A DNA stretch of 64,000 bases from an uncultured Bacilli bacterium (GTDB lineage Bacteria; Bacillota_I; Bacilli_A; RF39; UBA660). The DNA lies in NCBI GenBank assembly GCA_934176955.1, contig CAKPOS010000001.1:28310-92309 (forward strand), written 5' to 3'. The position numbers were made by a program, and so were the translations under genes. Shown here piece after piece: positions 1,313 through 46,528 of this stretch; the first letter of the stretch is position 1, and each line of letters opens with the position of its first letter. Under the pieces are notes generated by a model that had not been told where the DNA came from, searched no databases, and saw only the letters and a list, made by a program, of their open reading frames with translations.

Positions 1313-1642
1313 ATGGTAGTAAGATTGAACAATTTAGAATTTGATGATCATCAGACAAAAGAGGCAATGTTTGCTTTTCAATGTGATAAATTGGAATGTG
1401 ATTTGCAAAGTAAGTTGTATGATGAAGAAAAATGTGTTGATTTAACTCATCAAGAGGAAAATAAAGTAATGAATAATTCGATAGTTCATCGTTTGCTTGA
1501 TGAGGAAAGTTCATGGTCAGAGATGTGGTTAAAATTTGGACAAGAGATTTATCCTTATGATGAGAATTTTAAATCTGTTTCTGATTATGCTATTGAGCAT
1601 AAAATTCATGAAAAAAGAACCAAAAAACTAAATCATATATAA
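1313..1642 (+). CDS. hypothetical acidic protein (109 aa)
   Basis: More protein-like composition than the overlapping minus-strand ORF 1152..1514. Followed by a bidirectional terminator. Confidence 0.25.
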   Translation: MVVRLNNLEFDDHQTKEAMFAFQCDKLECDLQSKLYDEEKCVDLTHQEENKVMNNSIVHRLLDEESSWSEMWLKFGQEIYPYDENFKSVSDYAIEHKIHEKRTKKLNHI

Positions 1643-1650
1643 CTAAAAAA

Positions 1651-1681
1651 AGATATCATAAGTGGTATCTTTTATTTTGGT
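1651..1681. terminator. bidirectional intrinsic terminator
   Basis: AAGATATC..GGTATCTT stem flanked by an A-run and a T-run, between convergent genes. Confidence 0.5.
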
Positions 1682-2847
1682 TTCTTTTTAGAAAATCCAT
1701 TAAATTTGTATAGAAGGTCATTGATGACTAAATCAAAACTATTTGTATATTCTATAATATTGCCATTATATCCTGTTTTCGTAATTTGATTTTTTGCAAC
1801 AAAAATTGTTCCTAAGTCAAATCTAGAATATCCTTCCATAATTAATTTTTTCATAATCTCCCATTTTATCATAGGAATACTTCGAATACTTTTAAATTCA
1901 TTGGTATAACTTTCTTTAATAAAAGTCACTTCACGATCATTTTTGATAATGCCAACACCAGAGATAATTACACCTTTTGGATATTTTTTTAAAATTTCTG
2001 TTCCGGCAATAAGCTCATTATTATAAGTTGTTAATAAATGGTCAGAAGTCATTTTTCTTTCCAGTAAATTTTTTGTTTTTTGTATTCGTGGGTTTTTTAA
2101 TTTTTGATTTAATCTTTCATTGTTGATTTGTTCTTTCTTAATTAAATAGCGATAATTATTAATATAAGTTTCGGGCATGATTTTTGCTAAATAAAATTCA
2201 AATTGATTACTTTTAGAAGTAAATAATTCCATGATATTTTGATATCTTTCTTTATTCTCTACTAGATTTAAAAAGTCTTGTTTATCTTTTTCTGTTCCTT
2301 GATAAACGGTTATTCCTTTTTTTAAACAGTTATTAATATTTCTTCTTAAACTTCTTTTAAAATTTTGATAGGTAGATTTAATATTTGTTGCTTTTAATAC
2401 CATTTTATATTTTGCAGTATTTGGGATAAAATCATATTCTAATTTTTCAAATTCTTTAATAATTCCGCTGTTATTTTCTTTTAAGATAAAATCACTATCA
2501 TAAACTTGATAATTGATTAAGGGATTGATTCTTAAGTAAATATAATTTAATTTTTTTAAGTAAGATTTTAATTCAGTAGTAAAGCATTTTAATAAATCAA
2601 GATTATAATAATCTAATAAATATCCATTAGGGACATATCCATAGCGATGTTTATTATTAATCTTTTTTTCTAAGATTAAAGTAGCAGCGTGAACGTTATT
2701 CATCTCATCAATTAATCCTAAAAAAAGAGGGGTATATCCATTCATCATTTTTAATTTTGCATACTCAACACTTTGTTTATAATTTCTCTTACTATGTAGA
2801 GTAGAATAGTTCTTAAATTGTAATTCAGATAAGGTAATAATATGCAT
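1672..2847 (-). CDS. FemAB-family peptidoglycan interpeptide-bridge aminoacyltransferase
   Basis: 391 aa. C-terminal pattern YPKGVIISG...SYTNEFKS...YSRFDLG parallels FemX HPEGIYLSG...SSNEFRD...TYDFGG after a central coiled coil. Sits next to ddl. Confidence 0.6.
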   Translation of the reverse strand: MHIITLSELQFKNYSTLHSKRNYKQSVEYAKLKMMNGYTPLFLGLIDEMNNVHAATLILEKKINNKHRYGYVPNGYLLDYYNLDLLKCFTTELKSYLKKLNYIYLRINPLINYQVYDSDFILKENNSGIIKEFEKLEYDFIPNTAKYKMVLKATNIKSTYQNFKRSLRRNINNCLKKGITVYQGTEKDKQDFLNLVENKERYQNIMELFTSKSNQFEFYLAKIMPETYINNYRYLIKKEQINNERLNQKLKNPRIQKTKNLLERKMTSDHLLTTYNNELIAGTEILKKYPKGVIISGVGIIKNDREVTFIKESYTNEFKSIRSIPMIKWEIMKKLIMEGYSRFDLGTIFVAKNQITKTGYNGNIIEYTNSFDLVINDLLYKFNGFSKKKPK

Positions 2848-3019
2848 CTTATTCCTCCTTTGACTTCTTAATTATAGCAATTTTTTTTCTCTTTGTATAG
2901 TCTTTAAATTAACATTTAGTTATTGGTAAGTATTTTTGCTTAAGAAAAAATGTAAACTGAATTGTTTTTCCTTTTCAAAGAAATTTTTTTATATTATACT
3001 AGATTTGTAGGTGATAAAA

Positions 3020-4177
3020 ATGAAATTAAATGTTGGTGTAATTTTTGGGGGGAAAACCGTTGAACATGAGGCCTCTATTTTAACTGCAATTCAAGCTATT
3101 TCTCATATTGACAGTGAAAAATATGAAGTCATTCCCATTTATATTACAAAAGATTTAGAATGGTATACAGGAGGATGTTTAAAGTTTTTAGATACTTTTA
3201 AAGATTTTGATTTAATTAAAAGATATGCAAAAAAAGTAAGATTAATCAATAAAGAAGGAAGATATGTTTTACAGAAAGTTGGAGTAGTTAAGAGTGAGGT
3301 TTGTGAACTTCATTTAGCATTTCCTATGGTTCATGGAGCTAATATGGAAGATGGATCAATTCAAGGTTATTTAAATCTAATTGGTATTCCTTATGTAGGA
3401 AGTAATATTTATTCTTCTGTCATGGCACAAGATAAAGTATTTATGAAACAAGTACTGATAGCAAATGATATTCCTGTTACAAAATTTGTGTGGTTTGGAG
3501 AAAGATTCTATCGAAATAAGAAAGAAGAATTATTCAAACAAATTGATGAATTAAAATATCCTCTTATGATTAAACCTGCTACTTTAGGAGGAAGTGTAGG
3601 AGTAGAAACGATTACACAAAAAGAAGAAATTGATTCTACAATCGAAAGAACTTTTAAATTTGATAGCAAAGTTATTATCGAAGAAAAAATCTCTGATTTA
3701 GTAGAATATAACTGTTCCGTATTATTAACGCCAAATGGAAATATTACTAGTGAAATAGAAGAAATTAAAACCAGTAAAGAAATGATTGAATATGGAGATA
3801 AATTCTTAGTAGGAGAAGCTTTAGAAGATTCTAGTATTGTAAGAACTTGCCCTGCAGATATTTCTGAAAAATTAAGAAAAGAAATTGAAACTTATTCTTT
3901 AGCTGTATTTAAATTACTAAATATGCGAGGAACTGCTCGAATTGATTTCTTATATGATACAAAAAGTAAAAAGTTATACGTTGATGAGGTAAATAGTATT
4001 CCTTGGTGCTTTGCTCATCATTTATGGGAAGCTAGAAATATTTCTTATCGTGAACTTTTAAATGTCATGCTAAAAGATGCTATTTCTGTAGAAGTTAAAC
4101 ATCAAGAAATGACATTAACCCTTTCTTCTGATATTATTAAAAATACAACGAATGCAAAATTAAAGGAGATGAAGTAA
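3020..4177 (+). CDS. ddl: D-alanine--D-alanine ligase
   Basis: N-terminal VGVIFGGKTVEHEASILTA and C-terminal EVNSIPW...W.A..ISYRELL are classic Ddl motifs. AGGTGA RBS 6 nt before ATG 3020, so the GTG at 3011 is inside the RBS. Confidence 0.85.
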   Translation: MKLNVGVIFGGKTVEHEASILTAIQAISHIDSEKYEVIPIYITKDLEWYTGGCLKFLDTFKDFDLIKRYAKKVRLINKEGRYVLQKVGVVKSEVCELHLAFPMVHGANMEDGSIQGYLNLIGIPYVGSNIYSSVMAQDKVFMKQVLIANDIPVTKFVWFGERFYRNKKEELFKQIDELKYPLMIKPATLGGSVGVETITQKEEIDSTIERTFKFDSKVIIEEKISDLVEYNCSVLLTPNGNITSEIEEIKTSKEMIEYGDKFLVGEALEDSSIVRTCPADISEKLRKEIETYSLAVFKLLNMRGTARIDFLYDTKSKKLYVDEVNSIPWCFAHHLWEARNISYRELLNVMLKDAISVEVKHQEMTLTLSSDIIKNTTNAKLKEMK

Positions 4178-4737
4178 TGTACGGATATATTAAAGGGAAA
4201 ATTACAGAAATCGACAGCAATCATGTCATTTTAGAAAATCAAGATATTGGCTATTTAATTTATGTTCCTAATCCTTATTCTTATCGTTTAAATGAAATCG
4301 TAACCATTTATACTTATACTAAAGTAGGAGAAGAAGAGTATACTTTATATGGTTTTCAAACAAGAGAACAAAAAGAACTTTTCTTAAAACTAATCTCAGT
4401 AAAAGGATTAGGCCCTAAAATGGCTTTACCAATTATTGCTACAGGAAGTTTTACCTCTATTGCGGATGCTATTGAAAATAATCATCTAAGTTATTTGAAA
4501 AAATTTCCTAAGATTGGGGATAAAGTAGCAAAACAAATGGTTTTAGACTTAAAAGGAAAATTAAACACGGTCAATACTGGCTTATTTGCCAAAGAAGACT
4601 TTGCTGATGAATTAACAGAAGTATTACTAGGTCTTGGCTATAAACAAGCAGATGTTAAGAAAGTTGCCACAAAAGTAGATGGTAATTTATCTTTAGAAGA
4701 TCAAATTAAAGAAGCTTTAAAATTGATGTTAAAATAA
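4177..4737 (+). CDS. ruvA: Holliday junction DNA helicase subunit RuvA
   Basis: MYGYIKGKITEI... OB fold start. LISVKGLGPKMALPII helix-hairpin-helix. 186 aa. Confidence 0.85.
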   Translation: MYGYIKGKITEIDSNHVILENQDIGYLIYVPNPYSYRLNEIVTIYTYTKVGEEEYTLYGFQTREQKELFLKLISVKGLGPKMALPIIATGSFTSIADAIENNHLSYLKKFPKIGDKVAKQMVLDLKGKLNTVNTGLFAKEDFADELTEVLLGLGYKQADVKKVATKVDGNLSLEDQIKEALKLMLK

Positions 4738-4860
4738 TATTTTTTATTAAAAAAGTTTGTTATAAAAATAATGATAAACTTTTTTTCTTACTTTTTTGGT
4801 AATCCTTTGACACTAAAAAATTATATGCTATAATTGATATAGAATAAAGAGGTGGTTCTT

Positions 4861-6024
4861 TTGGGTAAGTATGATACAATTTTAAAAGTAAAAAAAGAAT
4901 ATCCCAAAAAAATACAGGAAGAACAAACTCATCATCGTCATTTTTCAAAATATGTAATCATTTATCTATTTTCTATTTTCCTTGTTTTAGGAATCAGTTA
5001 TATCGTTTACTATCAAACAGTATTATCTTTTGAAAGTGTATTACAAAATGATTTCTTCATTTTAAAAAAGCAATATACAAATGTTTTTCATCCTATTATT
5101 CCTAAAAATGTTATTTCTTCTTCTAGTTTAGAAGGAACATTTTCTTTAGAAAATACCGTTTATAATTATGGAATTCTAAAAGAAAAAGGAAAAATACAGT
5201 TAGAACTTTCTAACCAAGAAAATTATTTATATTCAAAAATTACTTCACAAGATTATTCTTTAAAATTAGAAAAATTTTCTTCTTATGGATTAGTTTTTGA
5301 ACAAGATATTTTGTATCAAGACTTAATTTCTCGGTTAAAAGCAAAAATCTCTCAAATAAAATCTGCTAAAAATTTATATTTAGAAGGAAATATTCCTATT
5401 GTAGAATTTGCTTTTTCTTTAAATGAAAAAGATATCAACGATGTTTTAGGAAGCAATATTTTAAAAGATCAATATAATATTATTGTCACCATAAAAAATA
5501 ATGCTTTAACCAATGAATTTATTTCTTTTAAAAGTGCAATAACAAACCAGAAAACAGGACAAAGAAGTATTTTAGAATATAAAGATAAAGAAATGATTTA
5601 TGAGGTTAATAAAGCAAAAACATATCGATTCAATATAAAAAATAAGGAAAAAGATTTCCAACTAAGAATTTATAAAAATGGGGAATTATACAGCACTTTC
5701 TTAGGAGAATCTTCAAAATATCAATATACTTATTCTTACCAAGTAATTAATAAAGTATATAATTTAAAATTTATGATTCAAGAAGAAAAAGGAGGATATT
5801 CTTATGAATTAAATTCTAGTATTGAAAAAGAGGGAGTAACTACAGAAAAAGCAGTTAAAGCTGTTTTAAGAAATGGACAAAATGACCTTTTAGAAGAAAG
5901 TACTGCTAAAAGAAGAAATTATCAAAATCTTTCTCAAGAAGAAAAAGAGAAATTTCAAAATGCTTTAAAAGACTTCCTTTCTCCATTAGAAAATCTTATT
6001 CATTATTACAAAAATGATATCTAG
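4861..6024 (+). CDS. hypothetical membrane-anchored protein
   Basis: AGAGGTGG RBS then TTG 4861. Single N-terminal TM helix (YVIIYLFSIFLVLGISYIVYY). No known domain. Confidence 0.45.
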   Translation: MGKYDTILKVKKEYPKKIQEEQTHHRHFSKYVIIYLFSIFLVLGISYIVYYQTVLSFESVLQNDFFILKKQYTNVFHPIIPKNVISSSSLEGTFSLENTVYNYGILKEKGKIQLELSNQENYLYSKITSQDYSLKLEKFSSYGLVFEQDILYQDLISRLKAKISQIKSAKNLYLEGNIPIVEFAFSLNEKDINDVLGSNILKDQYNIIVTIKNNALTNEFISFKSAITNQKTGQRSILEYKDKEMIYEVNKAKTYRFNIKNKEKDFQLRIYKNGELYSTFLGESSKYQYTYSYQVINKVYNLKFMIQEEKGGYSYELNSSIEKEGVTTEKAVKAVLRNGQNDLLEESTAKRRNYQNLSQEEKEKFQNALKDFLSPLENLIHYYKNDI

Positions 6025-34667: not shown

Positions 34668-35450
34668 ATGAATACTGTTGATAAAATTAATTTAATTTTA
34701 AAAAAAACAAATATCTCTAAAGTTAATTTGGCAAAATATTTAGGCGTTTCTAGACAAATGGTATATAATTATTTAGATAGTGATGATTTAAATAAGATGC
34801 CTGCTGAAAAGTGTCAATTGTTGTTTAATTTATTAGAAGTAAGAAGCTGTGAAGATATTGTAAATAAAGAACTTACTGATGAATATTTACAATCTGTTTC
34901 TAATAAAGTTTTTAATTATAAAAAAATTCCTTCAAAGAAAGAAGAAGTGATTGAACTTTCTGGATTAAAGAAAGAAGAACAAGAAATTATATCTGATATT
35001 GTTTTTCTTTTAAAAGAAATGTTAAATGAAAATAAAACGAAAGAGAGTTATATTACTTTAAAGTATTTATATCATTTTATTCAGTCATTGGCAAATATGA
35101 AGGAAGCAAAATATATATTAGGATACATTGCCAAAAATAATGGTTATTTAAAATATAATGTGTATGATTTTAATGAAGAAAATCAATTTATTTTTGAAAG
35201 CATTATGTATTCTGCAATGACTTTATATACAAATGGTGGCGCTTCAAGAAGTAAGTTAGCCGAATCACATCGTAGATGGGAAGCAGAATTAGAGAGAAAA
35301 AATGAAGAGAAATTAAGTCGTACACAGGAATTGAATACTGCTAAAGTACAAGCACTAAGAGAACTTGGATATACAGAGATTAATGAAAGAAATGCTAGTG
35401 AAGTGTTTGATAAGATAGCAGAAATTCAATCTAGAAATGATAAGTATTAA
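34668..35450 (+). CDS. XRE-family helix-turn-helix protein with a long C-terminal extension
   Basis: HTH ISKVNLAKYLGVSRQMVYNY near the N-terminus. 260 aa. Sits immediately upstream of the cas locus. Confidence 0.55.
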   Translation: MNTVDKINLILKKTNISKVNLAKYLGVSRQMVYNYLDSDDLNKMPAEKCQLLFNLLEVRSCEDIVNKELTDEYLQSVSNKVFNYKKIPSKKEEVIELSGLKKEEQEIISDIVFLLKEMLNENKTKESYITLKYLYHFIQSLANMKEAKYILGYIAKNNGYLKYNVYDFNEENQFIFESIMYSAMTLYTNGGASRSKLAESHRRWEAELERKNEEKLSRTQELNTAKVQALRELGYTEINERNASEVFDKIAEIQSRNDKY

Positions 35451-36054
35451 ATCGTTAGGATGATATTATTCATGAATCTTATTTTCTTACCATTTAAAAT
35501 TTTATTTGCTATTATCTTTTTTCCTTTTAAGATTGTTTTTAAACTGCTTGGAATTCGATGATAACATTGAGCAAATACTGATTCTTCGAAATTCAGTAGA
35601 CCTAACAAAAAGTATTCGTTATAAATTAACTTAATATTTATTTGAATTTTTTTAAAAATGATTTAGTTTTTTTAAATTTTAAGAAATAAAATATGATAAA
35701 ATCATGTCTAAAATTTAGATGTGATTTTTTAAACTCACCGAATTTCAAAGAACCCAAATACTGAAAACCATATCTAATTTTTTAGGTGTGGTTTTTGATT
35801 CCTTTGTATTAAAAATTTATCATTATTTCTTTATTTTGATTTTAATAAATTTATTATCAGATAAAAATAATTAAGTATTTTAAATAAGAAATAATATAAT
35901 GTTTAGTTTTTTAATACAAAGTTCTCTTTTTTGTACAATCAAAATATTTTACGCGATCAATTTTAAATGAAGAGAAGACTTTTCGATAGAAATTTGGTAC
36001 AATGAATTTAGGTAGTAAAAATATAATAAATTAATTAAGAAAGTAGGAAAAATA

Positions 36055-39000
36055 GTGAAAAAAGAAAATTATATTTTAGGATTAGATATTGGAATATCGT
36101 CTGTAGGTTGGGGATTATTAGCTTTAGATGAGAAAAATCAACCTTATAAGATTATTGATGTAGGAAGTCGAATCTTTTCTCCTGGAGAAGTAGAAAAAAC
36201 AGGAGATAGCAGGGCTAAAGAAAGAAGAGAAAAAAGAGGAATTAGGAGAAATATTAGAAGAAAAGAATTTCGACTTGATCGGGTAAGAAATCTATTATAT
36301 GAAGAAGGCTATTTAAAGGGAAATGTAACTAGTAATATTGTTTCAATAAAAAATGAAGAATTATCATTGTTATTTAATCATATGATTTGTCAATATTATC
36401 TTAATAAGAATACTAATCCTTATCGTTTGAAAGTAGAAGCGTTAGATAGAAAGCTAACAAATGAAGAATTATCAATAATATTAGTACATTATGCAAAGAA
36501 GAGAGGATATAAATCTAATCGTGAAGAAGCATCGGAAAATGATTCTGGGAAGGTATTAAGCGCTATTAAAGAAAATGAGAAAATAATGAATGAACATCAT
36601 TATCGTACTATTTCTGAAATGTACATAAAAGATGAAAAATTTAAAAATAAAATCAAAAATAGTCCTGGAGATTATAAGATTTCTGTAACGAATGAAATGT
36701 ATTTAGAAGAAATCAACAAAGTACTCGACAGTCAAATAAAATTTGGAGTAATTACTGATACTTTTAAAGATAAATACTTAGAAATATATAATTCTAGAAG
36801 AAGTTATGCTAAAGGACCTGGAGGCAATTCTCCTTATGGTGGGGATTTAATTGAAAGAATGACTGGAAAATGTAATTTTGATGGGAATCTGAGGGCACCT
36901 AAAAGAGCTTTTTCTTCAGAATTATATGTTGCATTAACAAAGTTAGTTAATCTAAAGTATAAAATTAATGATGGAGAATATAAAAGATTATCTAAAGAAG
37001 AAATCAGTTATATGATAGAAAAAGCTAAAGAAAAGAAAACAACAACATATAAGGATTTGATAAAAGTAATTGGAGAGGAAAATATAGAATTTAAAGAGTT
37101 ATCTCTATCTAAAAAAGAATATGGGAAATTAATTGAAAATTTAAAGAAAAAATTAAATATTGGAAAAGATAAAAAAGTGATTATTCATGAATTATCTAAT
37201 GAAGAGAAAGAGATTTACAATCAATTATATCATAATCAATTATATGATAAAACGTTAATAGAATTAAAAGGTTATCATGTATTAAAAGATAGTATAATAA
37301 AAGCTTATAGTAAAGATATTTGGGAAAAGGTTAAAGATAATGTAGAATTATTAGATGAACTTGCATTATATTGTACAAATTATAAAGTTGATGAAGACAT
37401 ACTAAATAAAATTAAAGAATCAGAAAATATAGATAATATATTTGAAGATATTCACTTTGTAGAATTGTTACCTAACTTTAAAGATCATTTAATGTTATCT
37501 ACAGAATTAATAAGAAAATTAATTCCTATTATGCTTGAAGGTAGTACATATGATAAGGCTATGGAAGAAATTGGATACAATCATTCTGATATAAACGGTG
37601 ATAAGGAAAAGAAAGATTTGTTAGTCCCTGTATGCGTTGATAGTAATATTACTAACCAAAGAGTAATTCGTTCTCTTACTCAAACTAGAAAAGTAATTAA
37701 TTCAATTATTAAAAAGTATGGAACTCCTAAAATTATTAATATAGAAACAGCTAGAGAACTTGCTAAAACTAGACAAGAAAGAAATGAAATAGCAAAAAAC
37801 AATGTAGAAAAGCAAGCTGAAAATGATAAAATTAAAAACCAATTAGTAGAATTAGGTTTATTTTCAAATCTTGATAAGATATCGAGTAATGACTTATTAA
37901 AGTATAAATTATGGAAAGAGCAAAATGAATTTTGTGGTTATAGCATGAAAAAAATATCGATTGAAGATTTATTTCAAAATAATATAGTTCAAATTGACCA
38001 CATATTACCTTATTCAAGAACTTATAATGATAGTTATTTTAACAAAACATTAGTATATACCAAAGAAAATCAAGAAAAAGGAAATAAGACACCATTTGAA
38101 TGGTTTGGTAAAACAGAAAAATGGGATGCATATGAAACATATATTAATCATTTGATGATATCTCAAAAGAAAAAAGATAATTATTTATTAAAGAAATTAG
38201 ATTTTGAGATGGAAAGAGAAATGAGAAATCAGAATCTTAATGATACTAAATATATTAGTAGAGAGTTATCTTCTTTAATTAAAGCATATTTAAATGTTGA
38301 AAAAGTAAATATGTATCCAGGTGCTATTACTTCTAAATTAAGAGCAAGATGGGGATTTAATCGACTTACTCATAGTTATTTATCAAAAACTTATAGATTA
38401 CCGGATGAGATGAAAAAAGATATTAATAAAGATAGAGATAATCATCTACATCATGCAATGGATGCTTTAGTAATCGCTTCTATAACACCATCATTACAAC
38501 AAAAGATAACGTTATATGAGAAGTTTAGTAGATATATTGATGGATTAACTGAATTACAAATTAAAAATATTCCATATATAAAGATAGATGATTCTGAAGG
38601 TCAATATTATAATGATAATACTGGTGAAATAGAAACTATTGATATAAAGGACTACATTAAAGAACAATTAGCAAATAATAATATATATTATAATAAGCAT
38701 AATATTAGTAAGTTAGAATTTCCACTTCCATATGAGGGATTTGATGAAGAAGCAAAGTTAAGAGTATACGAACAAGATTTAGACACTTTAAAATGGAATC
38801 TTCAATCATATAACACATACACAAAAAAAGATATAGAATCATTACATACATTAATACCATCTATTGCAAAATCTAAAATATCAGGTAAAATGCATGAAGA
38901 AACTTACTATGGAATAAAAGAATTTGGTAAAAATGAAGATAAAAAAGTATATAAGACTTTAAGGACACCTATTGAAAAGGTTAAAAGAAAAGACTTAGAA

Positions 39001-39690
39001 AATATTCCAGATAAATCGGGAGGTTCTAAAGAAATTTATGAAACTTTAGTAGAATGGTTTGGTGATTATGAAGTAGGAGAAGAAGTACTTAAAGCTAATG
39101 GAAATAAATATCCAGTATCTAAAAATGATAAAGAGCATAAAGAAATTAGAAAATTAAAATTATATAGTGAATATAAAAATACTGGCCACATGATTAATCA
39201 TAGTAATGTAGAAAAAGGTGGAATATATAGAGTTGATATATTTAAATCTAAAGATCAAGATGATGATAAATTATACTTTGCTGCTTATGATATATTGGAA
39301 ATAAAAAAAATTAATACATTAAGAGAAAAAAAGATGACAGATGATACCTTTACTATAAAATTAGATTATGGTCAAGGAAAAAATAATAGAATAATTTCGT
39401 ATACTGATATTGTAAATCATTATGATTTGTATCTTATTTTAAATAAAAATGATTTAATAAAAGTGATTACAAAGGATGGAAAAGAAAGCGTTGCTTATGT
39501 TGTTGGATGTTCTAGTGGAATGTTTGAAGTAAAAAGTAAATTAGGTGATGGATATGATATTATCGTTAATAGTTTTAATGAAAATAATATATTTAATAAG
39601 CAAAGAAAGCAATATGCAATAACTGTTTCTACAATTAAAAAAGTTAAAAAATTATCCATTAGTGTACTAGGAGAGATAAGTGGGTTATAG
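36055..39690 (+). CDS. cas9: type II CRISPR-associated endonuclease Cas9 (1211 aa)
   Basis: RuvC-I ILGLDIGISSVGWGLL, HNH block IDHILPYSRTYNDSYFNKTLVYTKENQEKGNKTPFEW, RuvC-III HHAMDALVIA. AGGAAAAATA RBS then GTG start. Confidence 0.92.
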   Translation: MKKENYILGLDIGISSVGWGLLALDEKNQPYKIIDVGSRIFSPGEVEKTGDSRAKERREKRGIRRNIRRKEFRLDRVRNLLYEEGYLKGNVTSNIVSIKNEELSLLFNHMICQYYLNKNTNPYRLKVEALDRKLTNEELSIILVHYAKKRGYKSNREEASENDSGKVLSAIKENEKIMNEHHYRTISEMYIKDEKFKNKIKNSPGDYKISVTNEMYLEEINKVLDSQIKFGVITDTFKDKYLEIYNSRRSYAKGPGGNSPYGGDLIERMTGKCNFDGNLRAPKRAFSSELYVALTKLVNLKYKINDGEYKRLSKEEISYMIEKAKEKKTTTYKDLIKVIGEENIEFKELSLSKKEYGKLIENLKKKLNIGKDKKVIIHELSNEEKEIYNQLYHNQLYDKTLIELKGYHVLKDSIIKAYSKDIWEKVKDNVELLDELALYCTNYKVDEDILNKIKESENIDNIFEDIHFVELLPNFKDHLMLSTELIRKLIPIMLEGSTYDKAMEEIGYNHSDINGDKEKKDLLVPVCVDSNITNQRVIRSLTQTRKVINSIIKKYGTPKIINIETARELAKTRQERNEIAKNNVEKQAENDKIKNQLVELGLFSNLDKISSNDLLKYKLWKEQNEFCGYSMKKISIEDLFQNNIVQIDHILPYSRTYNDSYFNKTLVYTKENQEKGNKTPFEWFGKTEKWDAYETYINHLMISQKKKDNYLLKKLDFEMEREMRNQNLNDTKYISRELSSLIKAYLNVEKVNMYPGAITSKLRARWGFNRLTHSYLSKTYRLPDEMKKDINKDRDNHLHHAMDALVIASITPSLQQKITLYEKFSRYIDGLTELQIKNIPYIKIDDSEGQYYNDNTGEIETIDIKDYIKEQLANNNIYYNKHNISKLEFPLPYEGFDEEAKLRVYEQDLDTLKWNLQSYNTYTKKDIESLHTLIPSIAKSKISGKMHEETYYGIKEFGKNEDKKVYKTLRTPIEKVKRKDLENIPDKSGGSKEIYETLVEWFGDYEVGEEVLKANGNKYPVSKNDKEHKEIRKLKLYSEYKNTGHMINHSNVEKGGIYRVDIFKSKDQDDDKLYFAAYDILEIKKINTLREKKMTDDTFTIKLDYGQGKNNRIISYTDIVNHYDLYLILNKNDLIKVITKDGKESVAYVVGCSSGMFEVKSKLGDGYDIIVNSFNENNIFNKQRKQYAITVSTIKKVKKLSISVLGEISGL

Positions 39691-40570
39691 GCAGGTTATT
39701 ATCAAAAAAAGTGAAAAATTACACTTTAAAGACAATCAATTAGTTATTGATAAAGAAGAAAATAGTACTAAAGTGCCTTTGGAAGATATAAGTTATATTT
39801 TAATTGAAGATTCAACAACTATTCTTACGACTAGATTACTTGCTGAATTAGGAAAAAATGCCATATCATTAATTGTATGTGATGAAAAATTTGAACCTAC
39901 GTCGATAATGTATCCCTATAATTATCATTTTAAACAATTAGATGTTTTTACCAATCAATTAGAAATTGATGATAGCATTAAAAATGAATTTTGGAATCAA
40001 ATAGTTAAGAGAAAAATTGAAAATAGTATTAGAGTATTGGAAATGACTTCCAAAGAAGAGTTTCCAATCTCTAAACTAAATGAATATATTAATGAAGTAA
40101 TAGATGGTGATTCAAAAAATAGGGAAGGATTAGCTGCAAAAATGTATTTTCGTAGTTTATTTGGAAGTGATTTTATAAGATTTTATGATGATAATATAAA
40201 TGCTGCTTTAAATTATGGATATACTATAATTGCAAGTGCTATTATCAGAAATTTAGCTGTATATGGACTAAATACTTATTTAGGAATTCATCATAGTTCT
40301 AAGATAAATAATTTTAATTTAGCATATGATTTTTTAGAACCATATCGATCTGTAGTTGATAAATTTATATATGATAATAAAGATGATATTGTATTACCAT
40401 TGTCTTTTGAATTTAGAAAGAAATTAATAAATTTACTAAATAAAGAAGTATTACACCAAAATAAAAAATATACTATTGAATATAGTATAGGATTATTAAT
40501 AAAAAGCTATATAAAATCTTTTTCTACTGGTGAAATAAAATTAGATTTACCTAGTATTATATATGAATAA
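39680..40570 (+). CDS. cas1: CRISPR-associated endonuclease Cas1 (type II)
   Basis: GYRQVIIKKSEKLHFKDNQLVI parallels type II Cas1 [22 protein letters not shown]. GTG start overlaps the cas9 stop by 11 nt. Confidence 0.85.
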   Translation: MGYRQVIIKKSEKLHFKDNQLVIDKEENSTKVPLEDISYILIEDSTTILTTRLLAELGKNAISLIVCDEKFEPTSIMYPYNYHFKQLDVFTNQLEIDDSIKNEFWNQIVKRKIENSIRVLEMTSKEEFPISKLNEYINEVIDGDSKNREGLAAKMYFRSLFGSDFIRFYDDNINAALNYGYTIIASAIIRNLAVYGLNTYLGIHHSSKINNFNLAYDFLEPYRSVVDKFIYDNKDDIVLPLSFEFRKKLINLLNKEVLHQNKKYTIEYSIGLLIKSYIKSFSTGEIKLDLPSIIYE

Positions 40571-40886
40571 TAGATTTATGAGAGTAATTGTAATGTTTGA
40601 TTTACCAGTAATTACAGAAAAAGAGAAAAAAATAGCTACTAAATTTAGAAAATATTTATTAGATGATGGTTTTGTCATGATGCAATATTCTGTTTATTCT
40701 AGAATCTGTAAAAATAATGACGATTTAAATAAGCATATAAAAAGATTAAAAATAAACGCTCCTAAAACTGGGAATATTCGACTACTTCAAATAACAGAAA
40801 ATCAATATAACAATATGATTATGTTTTCAGGTACAAAGTCGGTGGAAGAAGAAATTTCTATAGAAAATTTATTGATATTTGAATAA
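40563..40886 (+). CDS. cas2: CRISPR-associated endoribonuclease Cas2
   Basis: 107 aa, MRVIVMFDLPV...QYSVYSRI pattern. Overlaps the cas1 end by 8 nt. Confidence 0.8.
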   Translation: MNNRFMRVIVMFDLPVITEKEKKIATKFRKYLLDDGFVMMQYSVYSRICKNNDDLNKHIKRLKINAPKTGNIRLLQITENQYNNMIMFSGTKSVEEEISIENLLIFE

Positions 40887-40912
40887 AAAAAACAGGTATA
40901 AACCTGTTTTTT
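40887..40912. terminator. bidirectional intrinsic terminator shared by cas2 and the minus-strand tracrRNA
   Basis: AAAAAACAGGT-ATA-AACCTGTTTTTTT: perfect hairpin with an A-run on one side and a T-run on the other. Confidence 0.65.
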
Positions 40913-41001
40913 TGATCTTTAAGGTTAGATCAAACCTAAGGCATTATGCCTTATTACAGAAACCTGTAAACTTTTAGTAATGTATGTCCAATCTTTCAGG
41001 A
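40887..41001 (-). ncRNA. tracrRNA (about 115 nt) encoded antisense to the cas operon
   Basis: Minus-strand anti-repeat ACAUACAUUACUAAAAGUUUACAGGUUUCUGUAA is complementary, with a few mismatches and wobbles, to the array repeat. It is followed by UAAGGCAUAAUGCCUUA (nexus-like hairpin), a second hairpin, and the terminator. A TTGACT-17-TACAAT promoter sits just upstream. Confidence 0.65.
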
Positions 41002-41008
41002 CAATTTA

Positions 41009-41037
41009 ATTGTATCGTATTTTATTCTTTTAGTCAA
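41009..41037 (-). promoter_or_regulatory. tracrRNA promoter embedded in the 3' end of the csn2-like gene
   Basis: Minus strand TTGACT(41032-41037)-17 nt-TACAAT(41009-41014). The -35 overlaps the last codons and stop (ATT GAC TAA) of the csn2-like ORF. Confidence 0.55.
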
Positions 41038-42079
41038 TGAATTTATTTAATATTTCTAAAAAAAGATTTTGAGTTTCTTTGTTGTCACAAATAATATATT
41101 CACAAGTAATATTTTTAGGTTTATGTAATACAATTTTAATACTATCAGAATTTAATATTTTACTAATTTGATTAGAATATTTATTAATAATATTTTCTTT
41201 AATTTTTATTATTTCTTCAGTAGTGATTAATGATTCATTATTTATATAAAAATCATCAAATAATATAGTACTATTGCTTTTATTATATTCTGTTTTTAAT
41301 ATGTAATTTTTAATTGCTTCATCGATGATATTAAAGTTAATTATTTTGTCTGTTATTTTATATATATTATAATTATTGATATTAATATACTCAAATATAT
41401 TATTACAACTGCTTAATATGAAATGACAATTTTCGTTAGATAGATTATCAATAGTATTTAGTAAATTAATAATTTCATTAGTATTCAAATATACATCGAA
41501 ATTATTAATAATAATTATTGTTGGTTGGTTATCAATTTTTTTAATATCTAAAAAATATAATTGATATAATAGTTTTCTTTTCATTGATTTAGAAATAATA
41601 CTATCATTAAGCAAAACATCATCAATATAAATATTAGTAAATTTATCTATAATAGAATTAATATCAGGTATCTCTATTTGAAATGATATATTACTATCAC
41701 TTTTTTTATTTATTTTTCTATCTAGTAAATTATTTACTTTTTCATCTATTACATCAAATATTTCGTTGGTATATTTAACAATTTTTTCTTCATTAATTTT
41801 ATTAATAACATCATTGTAAATTATTTGTTTTAAAGTATTATTTTTAGTAAATTTAAATTCATTAGTAAAATCATTTTCTTCATTAATACTTATAATATTA
41901 AAATTTTTACTATTATAAGTATTTCCATTTATTAATATATTTTTATTTTTCCCAAGCAAACAATTATTTAATGTATTAATTACTTTATTTTTGTAATTGC
42001 TATTTTTCCCGAAGAAAATTAAGTTTTTATCTAATTTAATTATATTTGGTTGATTATCAATGCTTATAACAATTTCCAT
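41030..42079 (-). CDS. Csn2-like protein (long Csn2 subfamily?), in inverted orientation relative to cas9-cas1-cas2
   Basis: 349 aa, within the ~350-aa range of long Csn2. N-terminal IFFGKNSNYKNKVINTLNNCLLGKNK and C-proximal IIIINNFDVYL...CHFILSSCNNIFEYI follow the Csn2 pattern (from memory: IVGQNNELKYY..GGKK and LIVLKNIDGF...LTFILFPSDQGYL). Sits between cas2 and the array. A 1-kb ORF is highly non-random in ~25% GC DNA. Confidence 0.5.
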   Translation of the reverse strand: MEIVISIDNQPNIIKLDKNLIFFGKNSNYKNKVINTLNNCLLGKNKNILINGNTYNSKNFNIISINEENDFTNEFKFTKNNTLKQIIYNDVINKINEEKIVKYTNEIFDVIDEKVNNLLDRKINKKSDSNISFQIEIPDINSIIDKFTNIYIDDVLLNDSIISKSMKRKLLYQLYFLDIKKIDNQPTIIIINNFDVYLNTNEIINLLNTIDNLSNENCHFILSSCNNIFEYININNYNIYKITDKIINFNIIDEAIKNYILKTEYNKSNSTILFDDFYINNESLITTEEIIKIKENIINKYSNQISKILNSDSIKIVLHKPKNITCEYIICDNKETQNLFLEILNKFID

Positions 42080-42200
42080 TTTTATTATTACCTCAACACA
42101 ATTGTATCAAATATATTTAAAATAATCTATATGTTGGTGTTAATATTTTTTTAAATTCAATATTGTATATTTTTTCTATAAATGATATAATTTATTTGAG
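42080..42200 (+). promoter_or_regulatory. CRISPR leader with extended -10 promoter
   Basis: AT-rich. TGATATAAT at 42183-42191 about 10 nt before the first repeat. Also holds the divergent promoter/RBS of the csn2-like gene. Confidence 0.5.
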
Positions 42201-42968
42201 GTTACAGGACCCTGTTAATTTTTAGTAATGTATAACAAGTTATTATAGTAAATGTTATTATACTACGTTACAGGACCCTGTTAATTTTTAGTAATGTATA
42301 ACAGGAACATGTTGAGTTATATCAACAAGTAAGTTACAGGACCCTGTTAATTTTTAGTAATGTATAACTAAACTAAATGAATTCAAGGGTTTACAAAGGT
42401 TACAGGACCCTGTTAATTTTTAGTAATGTATAACAGCTTGTTTAACTATCTCTTTTGATAATGGTTACAGGACCCTGTTAATTTTTAGTAATGTATAACT
42501 TAAAATGAACGAAAAAAGAGAAAGAATAGGTTACAGGACCCTGTTAATTTTTAGTAATGTATAACTGTTCACAACGTTTTACAATATACACAGCAGTTAC
42601 AGGACCCTGTTAATTTTTAGTAATGTATAACTAGAAGAAATTTAAAAGATAGGTAATTTACGTTACAGGACCCTGTTAATTTTTAGTAATGTATAACATG
42701 GGGTAAAAGTGGAGAATTTGTAAGCAAGTTACAGGACCCTGTTAATTTTTAGTAATGTATAACCACTTCAATTAAAATTGAAAGAGAGGTAAAGTTACAG
42801 GACCCTGTTAATTTTTAGTAATGTATAACTTTTGATAATATAAGTGATTATTTGTATAAGTTACAGGACCCTGTTAATTTTTAGTAATGTATAACTATCA
42901 CAAATAAGGCTAGTAATGTAAGTAAGTTACAGGACCCTGTTAATTTTTAGTAATTAGTAATGTATAAC
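42201..42968 (+). CRISPR. CRISPR array, 12 repeats / 11 spacers, repeat GTTACAGGACCCTGTTAATTTTTAGTAATGTATAAC (36 nt)
   Basis: Eleven identical repeats start at 42201, 42267, 42333, 42399, 42464, 42530, 42596, 42662, 42728, 42794, 42860. Spacers are 30 nt except spacer 4 (29 nt). The terminal repeat 42926-42968 carries a 7-nt TAGTAAT duplication. Confidence 0.95.
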
Positions 42969-43447
42969 ATAATGACAAGATTAATACAAAAAAACTTAAA
43001 TTTTAACGAAATATCAAGATGAACTAAAGAAAATGCAAATAACACACCCACCTATATTACCAAAACAAAAGTTAAAACAGAAATAAGTGTAAACTTAATT
43101 TTTAATAGAGAAGGGGAGAGTGAAAAAAATTCAAGTCCCCTATTTTATATAATAAAAAGTAATTATTTATTGTTATCAAAGTTATCAAAATATAAAATAT
43201 ATTTACCTATATAAAATATTCTATAATAAAATAACGTTATTTATTAAATAAAATTAAAATTATTTAATTCATTTAATTTATAATTTTTTGAATTTATATT
43301 TAATTTTATTTTGAATTATTGTTATTTAAATTCTTTTTAAAAGCTTTAAATTTATCAAAAAAGTTTTATATATAATTAGTTAGATTTTAAATAAAAAAAT
43401 AAACTAAAATTAAAGTTTAGATTTTAAAATTTAATTTGAAATTAAAA

Positions 43448-43650
43448 AGTTGGATAATTATCCATCTCAAGTTAAATTTTAGAGAAATAAAAATGGAATC
43501 GAAAATCAAAAAGATGAATGATTGTACAACTCAAGTTAAATTTAAGTCAAGTAAAATTTAACTTGAGAATTAAAAAATTGGATAACTATCCATCTCAATT
43601 TAAATTTTTTTTAATTTAGATCTCTAAATTTAATTTGAGTTGATGAATGA
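43448..43650. repeat. cluster of nested direct/inverted repeats with DnaA-box-like palindromes in an ORF-free region
   Basis: TTGGATAATTATCCATCTCAAGTTAAATTT (43450-43479) and TTGGATAACTATCCATCTCAATTTAAATTT (43578-43607). Between them is the palindrome CTCAAGTTAAATTT...AAATTTAACTTGAG. CAACTCAAGTTAAATTT (43527) and its inverted partner (43627-43645) are flanked by direct GATGAATGAT copies. Confidence 0.5.
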
Positions 43651-43978
43651 TGATGATTTATTCAATTCAAACTTTATTAATTTATGTAATTATGTAATAA
43701 TGTATTAATTAATTGAAAATAATATATAGTAGTTTATAATTTATAAAACTTATATATTGATTAATTCATTCATTATAAACTTTGAAAAAAATGTTTAGTA
43801 TAGCTATAAATTTATCTTAAAAATTCTATTTTTGTTAGTTCCTATAATTTATATTATGTAAACTTCTGTATCTAAAATAGAAAGAAAACCCTTATATTAT
43901 AAGGGCCTATTCCATTATTTTAGTTTCATTTTTAATTCTTAAATCTTAATTCAATATCAGTATTTTTTGTTCATCATT

Positions 43979-46528
43979 TTATTTTAATTTTTCTTTTAAC
44001 TCATATAATAAATTTAAAGCTTTTAAAGGGGTTAATTCTAGAACGTTTGTTTGTTTTAAGATTTCTTCAACTTCGCTTTTTTCAGTTATTTTTTGAGAAA
44101 TAACATCTAGTGGTAAACTTGTTTGAATAGCAATTTCTTTTTTACTTGGATCGTTATTTTCATAAGCTGCTAATATTTCAGATGCTCTACTTAACACTTC
44201 GTTTGGTAATCCTGCTAATTTAGCAACATTAATTCCATAACTTTTGTCGACACTACCATCTTTTACTTTGTGTAAAAAGATGATATTTTCTCCATCTTCT
44301 GACGCAGATACATGTTTATTTTTTAAGTGCTTTAACTCTTTTTCTAATTTAGTTAATTCATGATAATGCGTTGAAAATAACGTTTTACAACCAATTGTAT
44401 TGTTTACATATTCTAATATTGCTTGTGCTAGACTCATTCCATCATAAGTAGCAGTTCCCCTACCCAATTCATCGAATAAAATCAGACTACTTTTGGTAGC
44501 ATTTTTTAAAGCGTGTGTAGCCTCAATCATCTCAACCATGAAAGTAGATTCTCCACTGACTAAGTCATCACTGGCACCTATTCTTGTGAATATTTGGTCG
44601 AATATTGGCATTTTTGCTTCTTTTGCAGGGACAAAACATCCTATTTGGGACATAATAGCAATTATTCCTAATTGTCTCATATAAGTACTTTTTCCAGCCA
44701 TATTAGGGCCTGTAATTAATAGTGTATATACACCGTTATCCATTACAATATCATTAGGAACATATTCTCCTTTAATTACTCTTTCTACTACAGGATGTCT
44801 TGATTCTATTAATTTTAAGCTATGATCTAATGTTAAAGTTGGTCTTACATAATTATATCTTTCACTCACTGAGGCAAAGCTTTGTAAAACATCTATTTCG
44901 CTAATTGTTTTAGCAATTTTTTGTAATTTAGGAATATATTTTTTGATTTTATCTCTAATTTCGATAAATAGTTCATATTCTAAATTAATGATTTTTTCTT
45001 CTGCACTTAGAATTAAATCTTCTTTTTCTTTTAAAAGAGGAGTAATAAATCTTTCACAATTTGTTAAAGTTTGCTTTCTAATATAACCCATATCCTCTCG
45101 AATTAGTCCTAAGTTACTTTTAGATATTTCAATGTAATAACCAAATACTTTATTAAATCCTATTTTTAAATTTTTTATTCCTGTTCTTTCTTTTTCTTCT
45201 AATTCGAATTTGCTGATGAAGTCCTTTCCCCCACTTCTTAATTCTTTTAGTTCATCTAATTCACTGGAGTAACCTTTTTTGATTAAATATCCTTCTTTTA
45301 AGGTAATAGGGGGTTCTTCATAAATGGCTGCTTCTAGGAGGTCATATAAGTCTGATAAGGGGTTGATGTCACTATAAAACTTTATTTCTTTTAACATTTC
45401 TGCAATGATAGGTAATACTTTTAGGGAATTTTTTAATTGAATTAAATCTCTTCCATTGGCATTTCCTAAAGCTATTCTTCCACTTAATCTTTCTAAGTCA
45501 TAAATTTCATATAAATTTTTTCTTAAATCTTCTGCTAAGATAAATTCTTCGATTAATTTGCTGACAACTTCATGCCTTTTTTCAATGGGTTTCTTTTCTT
45601 TTAATGGAGCTTCAATCCATTGTTTTAATTTTCGACTTCCCATGGCTGTTTTAGTATTATCCAAAAGCCATAGTAAAGAGTAATTTCTATCTTTTAAACG
45701 AAGACTTTCTGTTAATTCTAGATTTCTTTTGGTATGAATATCCATCTTTAAGAAATTGTCAGTTTCATTAATGATTACTTTTTGTAAGTGACCTAAGCTT
45801 CTTTTTTGATTGATAACTAAATAATATAGTAAATGTTTAATCGAATTGATATAGCGACTATCGGTAATCCCCTTATAGCAGAATTTATATTCTTCTGTTT
45901 CAAGAATGTTATTTACCAATGTTACAGTTAAGTGATATTGTTCTTTTAGTAAATGAATAATATTAGAATTTACTAATTTGTTAATAATTACTTCTCTTAA
46001 TCCAAAAGATAAGATATCGTTAATTAATTTATCATCATCATGAGGAATGATTTCAGCATATAATTCTCCAGTTGTAATATCTGTATAGACAATAGAATAG
46101 CAATATTCATAATCATAGATGCTCCCAATATAATTATTTGTTTTTTCATCTAAGCTATTAGAACTAATAATGGTTCCTGAAGAAATCACTTCTGTAACAT
46201 CTCTTTTAACAATTCCTTTGGCAGATTTTGGATCTTCTAATTGTTCACAAATAGCCACTTTAAATCCTTGTTTAATTAGTTTATCAACATAAATATCTAC
46301 TGCGTGATGAGGAACGCCACACATGGGTACTCTTTCTTCTAAGCCAGCATTTCTTCCTGTTAGTGTTAATTCTAGGGCATGAGAGACGACTTCAGCATCT
46401 TCAAAGAACATTTCATAGAAATCTCCTAAGCGATATAATAAGATTACATCGGGATATTTGTCCTTTAATTCAACATAATGCCTCATCATAGGGGCTAATT
46501 TTGTTCTATCAATTTCACTTATTTTCAT
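43979..46528 (-). CDS. mutS: DNA mismatch repair protein MutS
   Basis: N-terminal mismatch-binding MMRHYVELKDKYPDVILLYRLGDFYEMF. Walker A GPNMAGKSTYMRQ. 849 aa. A CCCTTATATTATAAGGG terminator lies downstream on the minus strand. Confidence 0.9.
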   Translation of the reverse strand: MKISEIDRTKLAPMMRHYVELKDKYPDVILLYRLGDFYEMFFEDAEVVSHALELTLTGRNAGLEERVPMCGVPHHAVDIYVDKLIKQGFKVAICEQLEDPKSAKGIVKRDVTEVISSGTIISSNSLDEKTNNYIGSIYDYEYCYSIVYTDITTGELYAEIIPHDDDKLINDILSFGLREVIINKLVNSNIIHLLKEQYHLTVTLVNNILETEEYKFCYKGITDSRYINSIKHLLYYLVINQKRSLGHLQKVIINETDNFLKMDIHTKRNLELTESLRLKDRNYSLLWLLDNTKTAMGSRKLKQWIEAPLKEKKPIEKRHEVVSKLIEEFILAEDLRKNLYEIYDLERLSGRIALGNANGRDLIQLKNSLKVLPIIAEMLKEIKFYSDINPLSDLYDLLEAAIYEEPPITLKEGYLIKKGYSSELDELKELRSGGKDFISKFELEEKERTGIKNLKIGFNKVFGYYIEISKSNLGLIREDMGYIRKQTLTNCERFITPLLKEKEDLILSAEEKIINLEYELFIEIRDKIKKYIPKLQKIAKTISEIDVLQSFASVSERYNYVRPTLTLDHSLKLIESRHPVVERVIKGEYVPNDIVMDNGVYTLLITGPNMAGKSTYMRQLGIIAIMSQIGCFVPAKEAKMPIFDQIFTRIGASDDLVSGESTFMVEMIEATHALKNATKSSLILFDELGRGTATYDGMSLAQAILEYVNNTIGCKTLFSTHYHELTKLEKELKHLKNKHVSASEDGENIIFLHKVKDGSVDKSYGINVAKLAGLPNEVLSRASEILAAYENNDPSKKEIAIQTSLPLDVISQKITEKSEVEEILKQTNVLELTPLKALNLLYELKEKLK

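Follow-up and report, generated by a model that had tools for sequence, protein, structure and literature searches.

A long-type Csn2 homologue encoded opposite to cas9-cas1-cas2 and followed by a predicted tracrRNA: a conserved locus layout in uncultured gut Bacilli

In CRISPR (short palindromic repeats, clustered and regularly interspaced) systems of the S. thermophilus CRISPR1 type, here called St-type, the operon ends with csn2. Csn2 is the fourth and the signature protein of type II-A and a helper of spacer acquisition, and the studied proteins form a tetrameric ring on the ends of double-stranded DNA (dsDNA) that bridges Cas1-Cas2 (PMC6620040, PMC3695520). The protein has been called "an inactivated P-loop ATPase" (PMC10734277), and an operon order with csn2 in the last place is also assumed in PMC5382924. 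Here we report the analysis of a gene at positions 41030-42079 (minus strand) of a 64,000-nucleotide stretch of DNA from an uncultured Bacilli bacterium (contig CAKPOS010000001.1, positions 28,310 to 92,309), which we call the window. The canonical co-directional order cas9-cas1-cas2-csn2 is not found in this locus: the gene lies on the opposite strand, and the CRISPR leader adjoins its 5' end and not its 3' end. The best explanation overall, to which we assign a probability of about 85%, is that the gene encodes a Csn2 of the long (~350 amino acids, aa) family with a role in type II-A adaptation, which has its own promoter and is followed downstream by the trans-activating CRISPR RNA (tracrRNA).

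The open reading frame (ORF) starts with ATG and extends over 1050 nt, encoding a protein of 349 aa that is a Csn2 homologue. The PADLOC profile PDLC01597 ("Csn2, CAS-II-A") matches it with E=5.1e-104, residues 1-349 being placed on positions 1-338 of the 338 in the profile, and a second PADLOC Csn2 profile, PDLC01379, matches at E=2.3e-4. PADLOC-DB (2023) already contains a Csn2 hidden Markov model for the family, so the window protein is not new in kind. Independently of this label, a sequence bridge, a profile-to-profile comparison and the predicted structure lead to Csn2. The bridge was obtained with a profile of the close-family alignment (A1), which was compared with 1.84 billion representatives and returned 98 proteins, including P0214 (E=5.5e-4) and P0216 (E=8.2e-4), both of them members of the Pfam family Cas_St_Csn2 (3e-29 and 5e-55, respectively). 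In hhalign, A1 was matched to P0216, a verified PF16813 protein, with a probability of 93.6% (E=2e-7), and the broader family alignment (A3) with a probability of 97.7% (E=1.4e-12) over ~225 columns spanning residues 1-234; identity to St-type Csn2 within the aligned part is ~25%. The window protein does not reach the gathering threshold of PF16813, and its kinship with the St-type is visible profile-to-profile only; the S. thermophilus CRISPR1-type Csn2 (Stu0660) is a distant relative of the family, which stands apart as a family of its own.

The AlphaFold2 model of the 349-aa protein (pLDDT 81.7, pTM 0.74) shows an ATPase-like alpha/beta head into which a helical leg domain is inserted. In the model, an N-terminal sheet and the P-loop helix (residues 2-65) are followed by the helical insertion (67-181), by the Walker-B strand with the remaining sheet (187-248) and by an extra C-terminal domain (249-349), and this order of domains is that of long Csn2. 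The top PDB match in Foldseek was 3ZTH_A (E=1.2e-6), followed by the Csn2 chains 6QXF_B, 3TOC_A and 3S5U, which rank ahead of, or are interleaved with, ABC-type ATPases. The original prediction, made from the letters of the DNA and a list of its reading frames, had noted that the length of the ORF fits the long Csn2 class and had offered Csn2 as one of two possible identities; the 349-aa length and the PADLOC, hhalign and Foldseek results bear out this choice, and the structural comparison with Csn2 that it proposed recovered a Csn2/ABC-ATPase-like fold.

Several results weigh against this identification. Scans of Pfam and NCBIfam gave no match of any kind at E<=1, the Csn2 models (PF09711 and PF16813 in Pfam) included, and neither phmmer nor the close-family profile found anything meaningful among PDB sequences. 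A broad profile (A2) had 3ZTH (Stu0660, the long Csn2 of S. thermophilus) as its best PDB match at E=4.6e-11, a result that is partly circular because A2 holds two St-type sequences. The C-terminal ~115 residues remained unaligned to St-type Csn2 in hhalign, and the global similarity of the model to 3ZTH is weak (TM 0.42, root-mean-square deviation 11 A). In addition, csn2 lies outside the cas operon and need not be expressed together with cas1 and cas2. Finally, generic ABC ATPases, such as GajA, retron ATPases and the nucleotide-binding domains (NBDs) of transporters, are merely 100-fold worse than Csn2 in Foldseek.

The last of these points bears on a different reading, in which the protein is an active ABC/SMC-type ATPase of another defence system (GajA-, PtuA/retron-ATPase- or AbiL-like) that merely sits beside a CRISPR locus. 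Profile searches, like Foldseek, also match GajA, retron ATPases, SMC proteins and ABC transporter NBDs; the wider relatives have weak matches to AAA_21, SMC_N and ABC_tran and also match the PADLOC models mad8, AriA and PtuA, and of 59 representatives chosen from the wider family, 47 keep a canonical Walker A (GxNxSGK[ST]) together with the Walker B Asp. However, the window protein fails at both motifs of an active ATPase. Its Walker A reads G24-K-N-S-N-Y-K30-N in place of GxxxxGK[ST], and its Walker B reads I-I-N-N-F-D195 (I191, N192) in place of hhhhD[DE], with the Asp replaced by N192, a degeneration of the kind that marks an inactivated P-loop; no ATPase family of Pfam matches it. Nor does any gene next to csn2 encode a nuclease or another partner from those systems. 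When genomic contexts are compared, cas9-cas1-cas2, the tracrRNA and the array alone remain as constant neighbours, and the Csn2 profile is the best by 100 orders of magnitude. We therefore regard an unrelated defence ATPase as very improbable and retain the identification as Csn2.

An ABC-signature-like sequence, S165-K-S-M-K-R-K, precedes Walker B and is invariant within the close family; EFKFTK is another invariant motif. Two patterns that had been picked out by eye in the original prediction as shared with Csn2 are roughly correct: the degenerate Walker A corresponds to G24.N26...K30, the strand that follows Walker B contains HFILSS (219-224), and both regions align with the matching regions of St-type Csn2/Stu0660.

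The members of the wider family with an intact Walker A include the proteins P0125-P0143 and P0157-P0189 and those of the loci L023, L040, L045-L047, L052 and L022/L038; P0125-P0143, for example, match the window-clade profile with E-values of 1e-66 to 1e-39 at 30-40% identity. They have GxNxSGK[ST] and hhhID[ND]FD where the window clade has GKNSNYKN and IINNFD, and they, too, are associated with cas9-cas1-cas2 and an array and have a tracrRNA downstream; most show the convergent layout of the window. At least five Walker-A-intact lineages adjoin cas9-cas1-cas2 and/or arrays. Because the window clade is nested among intact members in a rough neighbour-joining tree, Walker A was probably lost secondarily in this clade, and the motif appears to have been lost separately in St-type Csn2 and in several other branches. 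A family with mostly intact Walker A sits oddly with the textbook description of Csn2 as an inactivated ATPase.

The gene itself bears the marks of a coding sequence under constraint. The G+C content over the ORF region is 15.5%, the minimum of the locus, and that of its neighbours is 23-27%, so the earlier statement of a 1050-nt ORF in DNA of ~25% G+C was right for the length, while ~25% is the regional value and not that of the ORF. With the base composition of csn2, one stop codon is expected per ~9 codons, and a run of 349 codons free of stops has a probability of ~6e-19 with the composition of the ORF itself and 4e-15 with the regional composition. The ratio of nonsynonymous to synonymous divergence (dN/dS, Nei-Gojobori) is 0.12-0.16 against five homologues with dS of 0.2-1.0, and the ORF is, by this sequence measure, under purifying selection. 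The open-frame probability and dN/dS led us to reject a chance ORF, and the conservation of csn2 to reject a pseudogene. Upstream of the gene, putative expression signals were read from the sequence at 42090-42109 (minus strand), namely a GAGGT Shine-Dalgarno sequence (42090-42094) located 10 nt 5' of the start codon and a candidate extended -10 element, TGATACAAT (42101-42109); the block TTTGATACAAT..TTGAGGTAA ahead of csn2 is kept in close loci.

A decaying, non-functional remnant of csn2, cut off from the cas operon by an inversion, would have explained the lowest G+C content of the locus, the degenerate ATPase motifs and the position on the strand opposite to the cas operon. The data on selection and conservation in effect refute this explanation, and we give it next to no credence. 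Besides the dN/dS values, 188 homologues were found at E<=0.01, and the best 120 of the 188 are mostly full length with few truncated fragments; csn2 is intact in all loci examined, including one in which cas9 is split; the gene has its own conserved ribosome-binding site and a putative promoter block; and its orientation is kept down to a locus (L052) with a Cas9 36% identical to that of the window. The markedly lower G+C content of csn2 compared to that of the cas operon is an observation in its own right.

The inverted position of csn2 is a lineage-wide conserved layout in uncultured gut Bacilli. Among 45 related loci fetched via csn2, 41 have both csn2 and cas2, which are adjacent in all 41, and the other four are contigs without cas2. 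The two genes are convergent in 38 of the 41; in the remaining three they are co-directional, with the array between cas2 and csn2. In the close relatives, which include 13 GTDB species (named "uncultured Tenericutes/Bacilli bacterium" or "Clostridium sp. CAG:433") and several unrelated chromosomal contexts, csn2 is convergent with cas2 in 19 of 19 cas-bearing loci at 57-96% Csn2 identity. The distant metagenome loci L023, L040, L052 and L053, with Cas9 proteins 36-51% identical to that of the window and with Walker-A-intact Csn2 among them, are convergent too. A search seeded with Cas1 yielded eight loci; in all of them the 349-aa ORF is intact, faces cas2 convergently and is identically spaced. 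A one-off inversion was rejected because the orientation is kept down to the locus with the 36%-identical Cas9 (L052). The geometry of the original prediction, in which the ORF converges with cas2 and diverges from the CRISPR leader, is correct, and its rearranged II-A adaptation module stands, but as the architecture of a lineage and not as a strain-specific inversion; the survey of related genomes that it suggested gave the 38 convergent loci of 41, and the ORF, whose absence or disruption in close relatives it had named as contrary evidence, is intact in every locus inspected. In one of the Cas1-seeded loci (L061) cas9 is split into ORFs of 62 and 1101 aa (1382-5011) beside an intact csn2. 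The loci L054-L061 lie between SHMT and a ToxN toxin gene with an integrase (for example, L054:10254-10769) and represent a very prevalent relative, the Cas1 of which is indexed in 3203 collection blocks.

The co-directional loci L045-L047 (L045:5834-8150) have the order cas9 > cas1 > cas2 > [array <- leader] csn2 > tracrRNA >, in which the leader adjoins the 5' end of csn2 and the array lies between cas2 and csn2. Because these loci keep array, leader, csn2 and tracrRNA together although flipped relative to the cas genes, the conserved unit is the module array <- leader, csn2 -> tracrRNA ->, the orientation of which relative to cas9-cas1-cas2 can flip. Five Csn2 subfamilies (I-V) were reportedly distinguished by Chylinski et al. 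in 2014. Our keyword search of the literature found no description of the convergent csn2-tracrRNA layout and no mention of an intact Walker A in Csn2; the paper on Csn2-subfamily classification lay outside that search, and an earlier description of the layout is possible.

Between csn2 and cas2, we identified a predicted tracrRNA of ~118 nt on the minus strand (40885-41002), which is supported by its fold, its anti-repeat and its conservation, and the ends of which are approximate. Its candidate promoter (41009-41037, minus strand) consists of a -35 element TTGACT (41037-41032), a 17-nt spacer and a -10 element TACAAT (41014-41009), with 10 of 12 consensus matches, and the -35 element overlaps the csn2 stop codon (41032-41030). 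The promoter is followed by a 5' hairpin (GUCC..GGAC), a 34-nt anti-repeat, a nexus-like hairpin, a second hairpin (40914-40931) and a terminator. The anti-repeat corresponds to a copy of the repeat at 40953-40988, between csn2 and cas2, that has the same DNA orientation as the repeats of the array, and the nexus-like hairpin, UAAGGCAUAAUGCCUUA (40937-40953), is invariant. The terminator (40885-40913), read from the sequence as an A-run, a CAGGT-TTAT-ACCTG hairpin and a T-run, coincides with the 3' hairpin of the predicted RNA fold; it is bidirectional and would serve cas2 on the plus strand, the stop codon of which abuts the T-run, as well as the tracrRNA on the minus strand. The predicted duplex of crRNA repeat and tracrRNA has an energy of -37.2 kcal/mol, compared to -11.8 +/- 2.8 for shuffled repeats, and the fold has a z-score of -4.0. 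With its anti-repeat, nexus-like and further hairpins, terminator and promoter, the element has all the parts by which we would recognize a tracrRNA.

The tracrRNA element keeps its position in related loci, from which 29 distinct sequences were collected. It was found in every close locus and in L023, L040 and L045-L048, where changes of the local repeat are matched by changes of the anti-repeat. The promoter pattern TTGAC(T/C)-N17-TAyAAT is kept at the 3' end of csn2 in close loci, and TTGACA or TTGATA lies within the 3' end of csn2 in distant ones. By eye in the alignment, the terminator stems vary between loci and stay self-complementary; the consensus fold of the tracrRNA alignment predicted no pairs at the terminator stem. 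In the two most distant loci, L052 and L053, the csn2-cas2 gap holds a terminator only, and an Rfam search at E<=1 over 35400-43980 detected no tracrRNA or other RNA family. An alternative tracrRNA on the plus strand, with the array read towards csn2, was rejected because the ATTTGAG motif and the degeneracy of the terminal repeat (described below) put the leader on the csn2 side; moreover, the anti-repeat is followed on the plus strand by neither a promoter nor a nexus nor a terminator.

The intergenic region between csn2 and the array is 121 nt long and contains two divergent putative extended -10 promoters, both of which are kept in close loci. The leader end (42163-42200, plus strand) comprises TTGTAT (42163-42168), 17 nt, the putative extended -10 element TGATATAAT (42183-42191) and ATTTGAG (42194-42200), which directly precedes the first repeat and is followed by GTTACAGG. 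ATTTGAG is the Group 1 leader-end motif of type II-A (ATTTGAG|GTT); S. thermophilus CRISPR1 cannot adapt without it, and it is considered the ancestral motif of II-A (PMC5382924). The Group 1 motif is present in the window and in related loci, where ATGATATAATTnATTTGAGG is kept beside the first repeat, and this supports a working II-A integration site at the sequence level. Only ~10 nt lie between repeat 1 and TGATATAAT, the putative -10 element of the CRISPR RNA precursor (pre-crRNA), so that no more than a few nt of the leader would be transcribed.

The CRISPR array (42201-42968, plus strand) has 12 repeats of 36 nt (GTTACAGGACCCTGTTAATTTTTAGTAATGTATAAC) and 11 spacers of 29-30 nt; a single spacer (42435-42463) is 29 nt instead of 30 nt long. 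The terminal repeat (42926-42968) is degenerate and carries a 7-nt tandem duplication (TTAGTAA x2, 42947-42961), which together with ATTTGAG fixes the direction of the array. Spacer 7 (42698-42727) is identical over 30 of 30 positions to the IMG/VR contig UViG_3300031867_004873 (L062:6488-6517, minus strand), where the 3' flank of the protospacer is ATATTTTA. For three of the four spacers tried, IMG/VR held no exact match, and the array had no megablast match among 50,697 records of cultured phages. Arrays in relatives have up to 49 spacers and vary in length and content: a spacer is shared in 6 of 406 locus pairs, the window shares none with other loci, and array length differs among otherwise identical Cas1-seeded loci and between samples. 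The CRISPR system thus appears to be alive, as judged from these sequence comparisons. In the closest relative (L001:5874-7654), the CRISPR array is overlain by public gene calls (99, 110 and 142 aa) that are almost certainly false genes.

By homology with the studied proteins, the Csn2 of the window would form a ring-shaped oligomer of degenerate ABC-ATPase-like heads with a helical insertion, thread onto dsDNA ends and hold the prespacer with Cas1-Cas2, while Cas9 would select the protospacer-adjacent motif; its oligomeric state, DNA-end binding and role in adaptation are most likely those of its homologues. New spacers would be integrated at the junction of ATTTGAG and the first repeat, ~120 bp upstream of the csn2 start codon. 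Transcription of csn2 would proceed from its own promoter, divergent from the pre-crRNA promoter. The gap between the csn2 stop codon and the predicted start of the tracrRNA is only ~28 nt long and contains no terminator, so that transcription of csn2 should continue across the tracrRNA as far as the terminator at 40885-40913; both RNAs would then end together at this one site, which on the other strand would also terminate cas2.

These elements can be joined into a tentative and more far-reaching reading, which we consider possible and clearly less probable than the identification itself. Here, array <- leader and csn2 -> tracrRNA -> would constitute a self-contained "memory module". The csn2 mRNA, with no terminator in its way and the tracrRNA -35 element on its own stop codon, would read into the tracrRNA and carry the anti-repeat, and might pair with the pre-crRNA and be cut by RNase III, thereby coupling Csn2 dosage to the supply of crRNA and tracrRNA. 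In addition, the family would keep an ancestral intact Walker A, so that some Csn2 proteins would bind nucleotides, and the site would have been lost repeatedly and independently.

The same arrangement could also be taken to mean that a protein homologous to Csn2 by descent has been co-opted to control tracrRNA or pre-crRNA expression at the neighbouring divergent promoters, or for DNA repair or end protection, instead of prespacer capture. Consistent with such a change of function, csn2 is uncoupled from the transcription of cas9-cas1-cas2 and stays tied to the leader, array and tracrRNA even when the orientation flips; its divergence outpaces that of the operon, with identities in the same loci (L001-L019) of 60-65% for Csn2, 63-68% for Cas9 and 83-88% for Cas1 and Cas2; and its C-terminal domain is unrelated in sequence to that of St-type Csn2. 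Yet the Pfam scan detected no DNA-binding regulator domain, an alignment to Csn2 spans ~225 residues of the head and insertion domains, and the II-A leader motif and the spacer turnover fit a working adaptation process, which needs Csn2 in studied systems (PMC6620040). We consider co-option unlikely.

The cas operon is located on the plus strand upstream of the terminator and consists of cas9 (36055-39690, 1211 aa; TIGR01865 cas_Csn1, E=2.7e-184; Pfam HNH_4 and RuvC_III), a type II cas1 (39680-40570, 296 aa; TIGR03639 cas1_NMENI, E=2.5e-84; PF01867) and cas2 (40563-40886, 107 aa; TIGR01573, E=3.5e-28; PF09827). The solved Cas9 structures nearest to the window Cas9 have ~1082-1154 aa (E ~1e-108 to 1e-116), with Sa-type entries at ~1e-57 to 1e-62 and St1Cas9 at 1e-43; the nearest ones we take to be of the Nme/Geo-type II-C. 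This affinity hints at a basal or independently derived II-A system. Upstream of cas9, and separated from it by a 600-nt gap (35451-36054), a 260-aa protein with a weak N-terminal helix-turn-helix is encoded at 34668-35450. It is present in the closest relative (L001) and probably lies outside the CRISPR system, because other genes replace it in L003 and L006. Beyond the array, ~1 kb of ORF-free DNA with ~16% G+C extends to mutS (42969-43978); it is conserved at 98% in L001 and 69% in L017, and it holds 2.7 tandem copies of a 64-nt unit (43439-43608), of which copies 1 and 3 contain the palindrome TGGATAA(T/C)TATCCA and copy 2 is degenerate there.

This Csn2 family is missed by Pfam, NCBIfam/PGAP and GenBank names, and its members are all called "hypothetical protein" in GenBank and in cluster look-ups. 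Because general annotation misses the family, Cas9 loci of gut Bacilli would be mistyped as II-C with an unexplained "hypothetical protein". Such loci are very common, as illustrated by the Cas1 variant in 3203 assembly-collection blocks, and recognition of csn2 fixes their subtype as II-A. For users of this Cas9 or of its adaptation machinery, the analysis defines the array direction and supplies a predicted tracrRNA and a leader. It also shows that csn2 need not belong to the cas operon, its constant partners here being the leader, array and tracrRNA. Finally, the family provides natural pairs of Walker-A-intact and degenerate Csn2 proteins, which bear on nucleotide binding and on the origin of Csn2 from ABC-type ATPases. 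In kind, csn2 is nothing out of the ordinary, although its layout is tidy, conserved and unusual, and the retention of Walker A may deserve more attention than the inversion.

Among known systems, the St-type Csn2 (Stu0660, 3ZTH, PF16813) shares with the window protein the ~350-aa class, a head with degenerate Walker A and B motifs, a helical insertion and an extra C-terminal domain, and S. thermophilus CRISPR1 shares with the window the leader-end motif ATTTGAG. In contrast, csn2 of the window is opposite to cas9-cas1-cas2 and is followed by the tracrRNA, and the window Cas9 is nearer to Nme/Geo-like Cas9 than to St1Cas9. The short Csn2 proteins of S. pyogenes (3TOC), E. faecalis (3S5U) and S. 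thermophilus CRISPR3 (6QXF) are presumed to have the same role, by analogy. They are recovered through the head and leg fold (Foldseek E-values of 3e-5 to 1e-3, TM to target 0.38-0.45), while HMMER detected no sequence similarity between them and the window protein; they are ~130 residues shorter and lack the C-terminal domain. The entry 6QXF is the S. thermophilus CRISPR3 Cas1-Cas2-Csn2-DNA complex, with the Csn2 ring in the role described in PMC6620040, and the short Csn2 systems belong to a leader motif group (PMC5382924) different from that of the window. GajA and the PtuA-like ATPases of the retrons Eco8, Ec78 and Ec83 share with the window protein an ABC-ATPase-like core with the order Walker A, S-x-S-x-K-R, Walker B. 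They are active enzymes fused to or partnered with nucleases, whereas the window protein is Cas-linked and has neither the nucleotide-binding residues nor a nuclease partner. Loci of the II-C style with a tracrRNA between cas2 and the array, for example in C. jejuni, were reportedly described by Chylinski et al. in 2013. The window resembles them in the order cas9-cas1-cas2, tracrRNA, array and in a Cas9 most similar to solved II-C-type enzymes, and differs from them in having csn2 between the tracrRNA and the array and the II-A leader motif ATTTGAG; by gene content, the window locus is type II-A.

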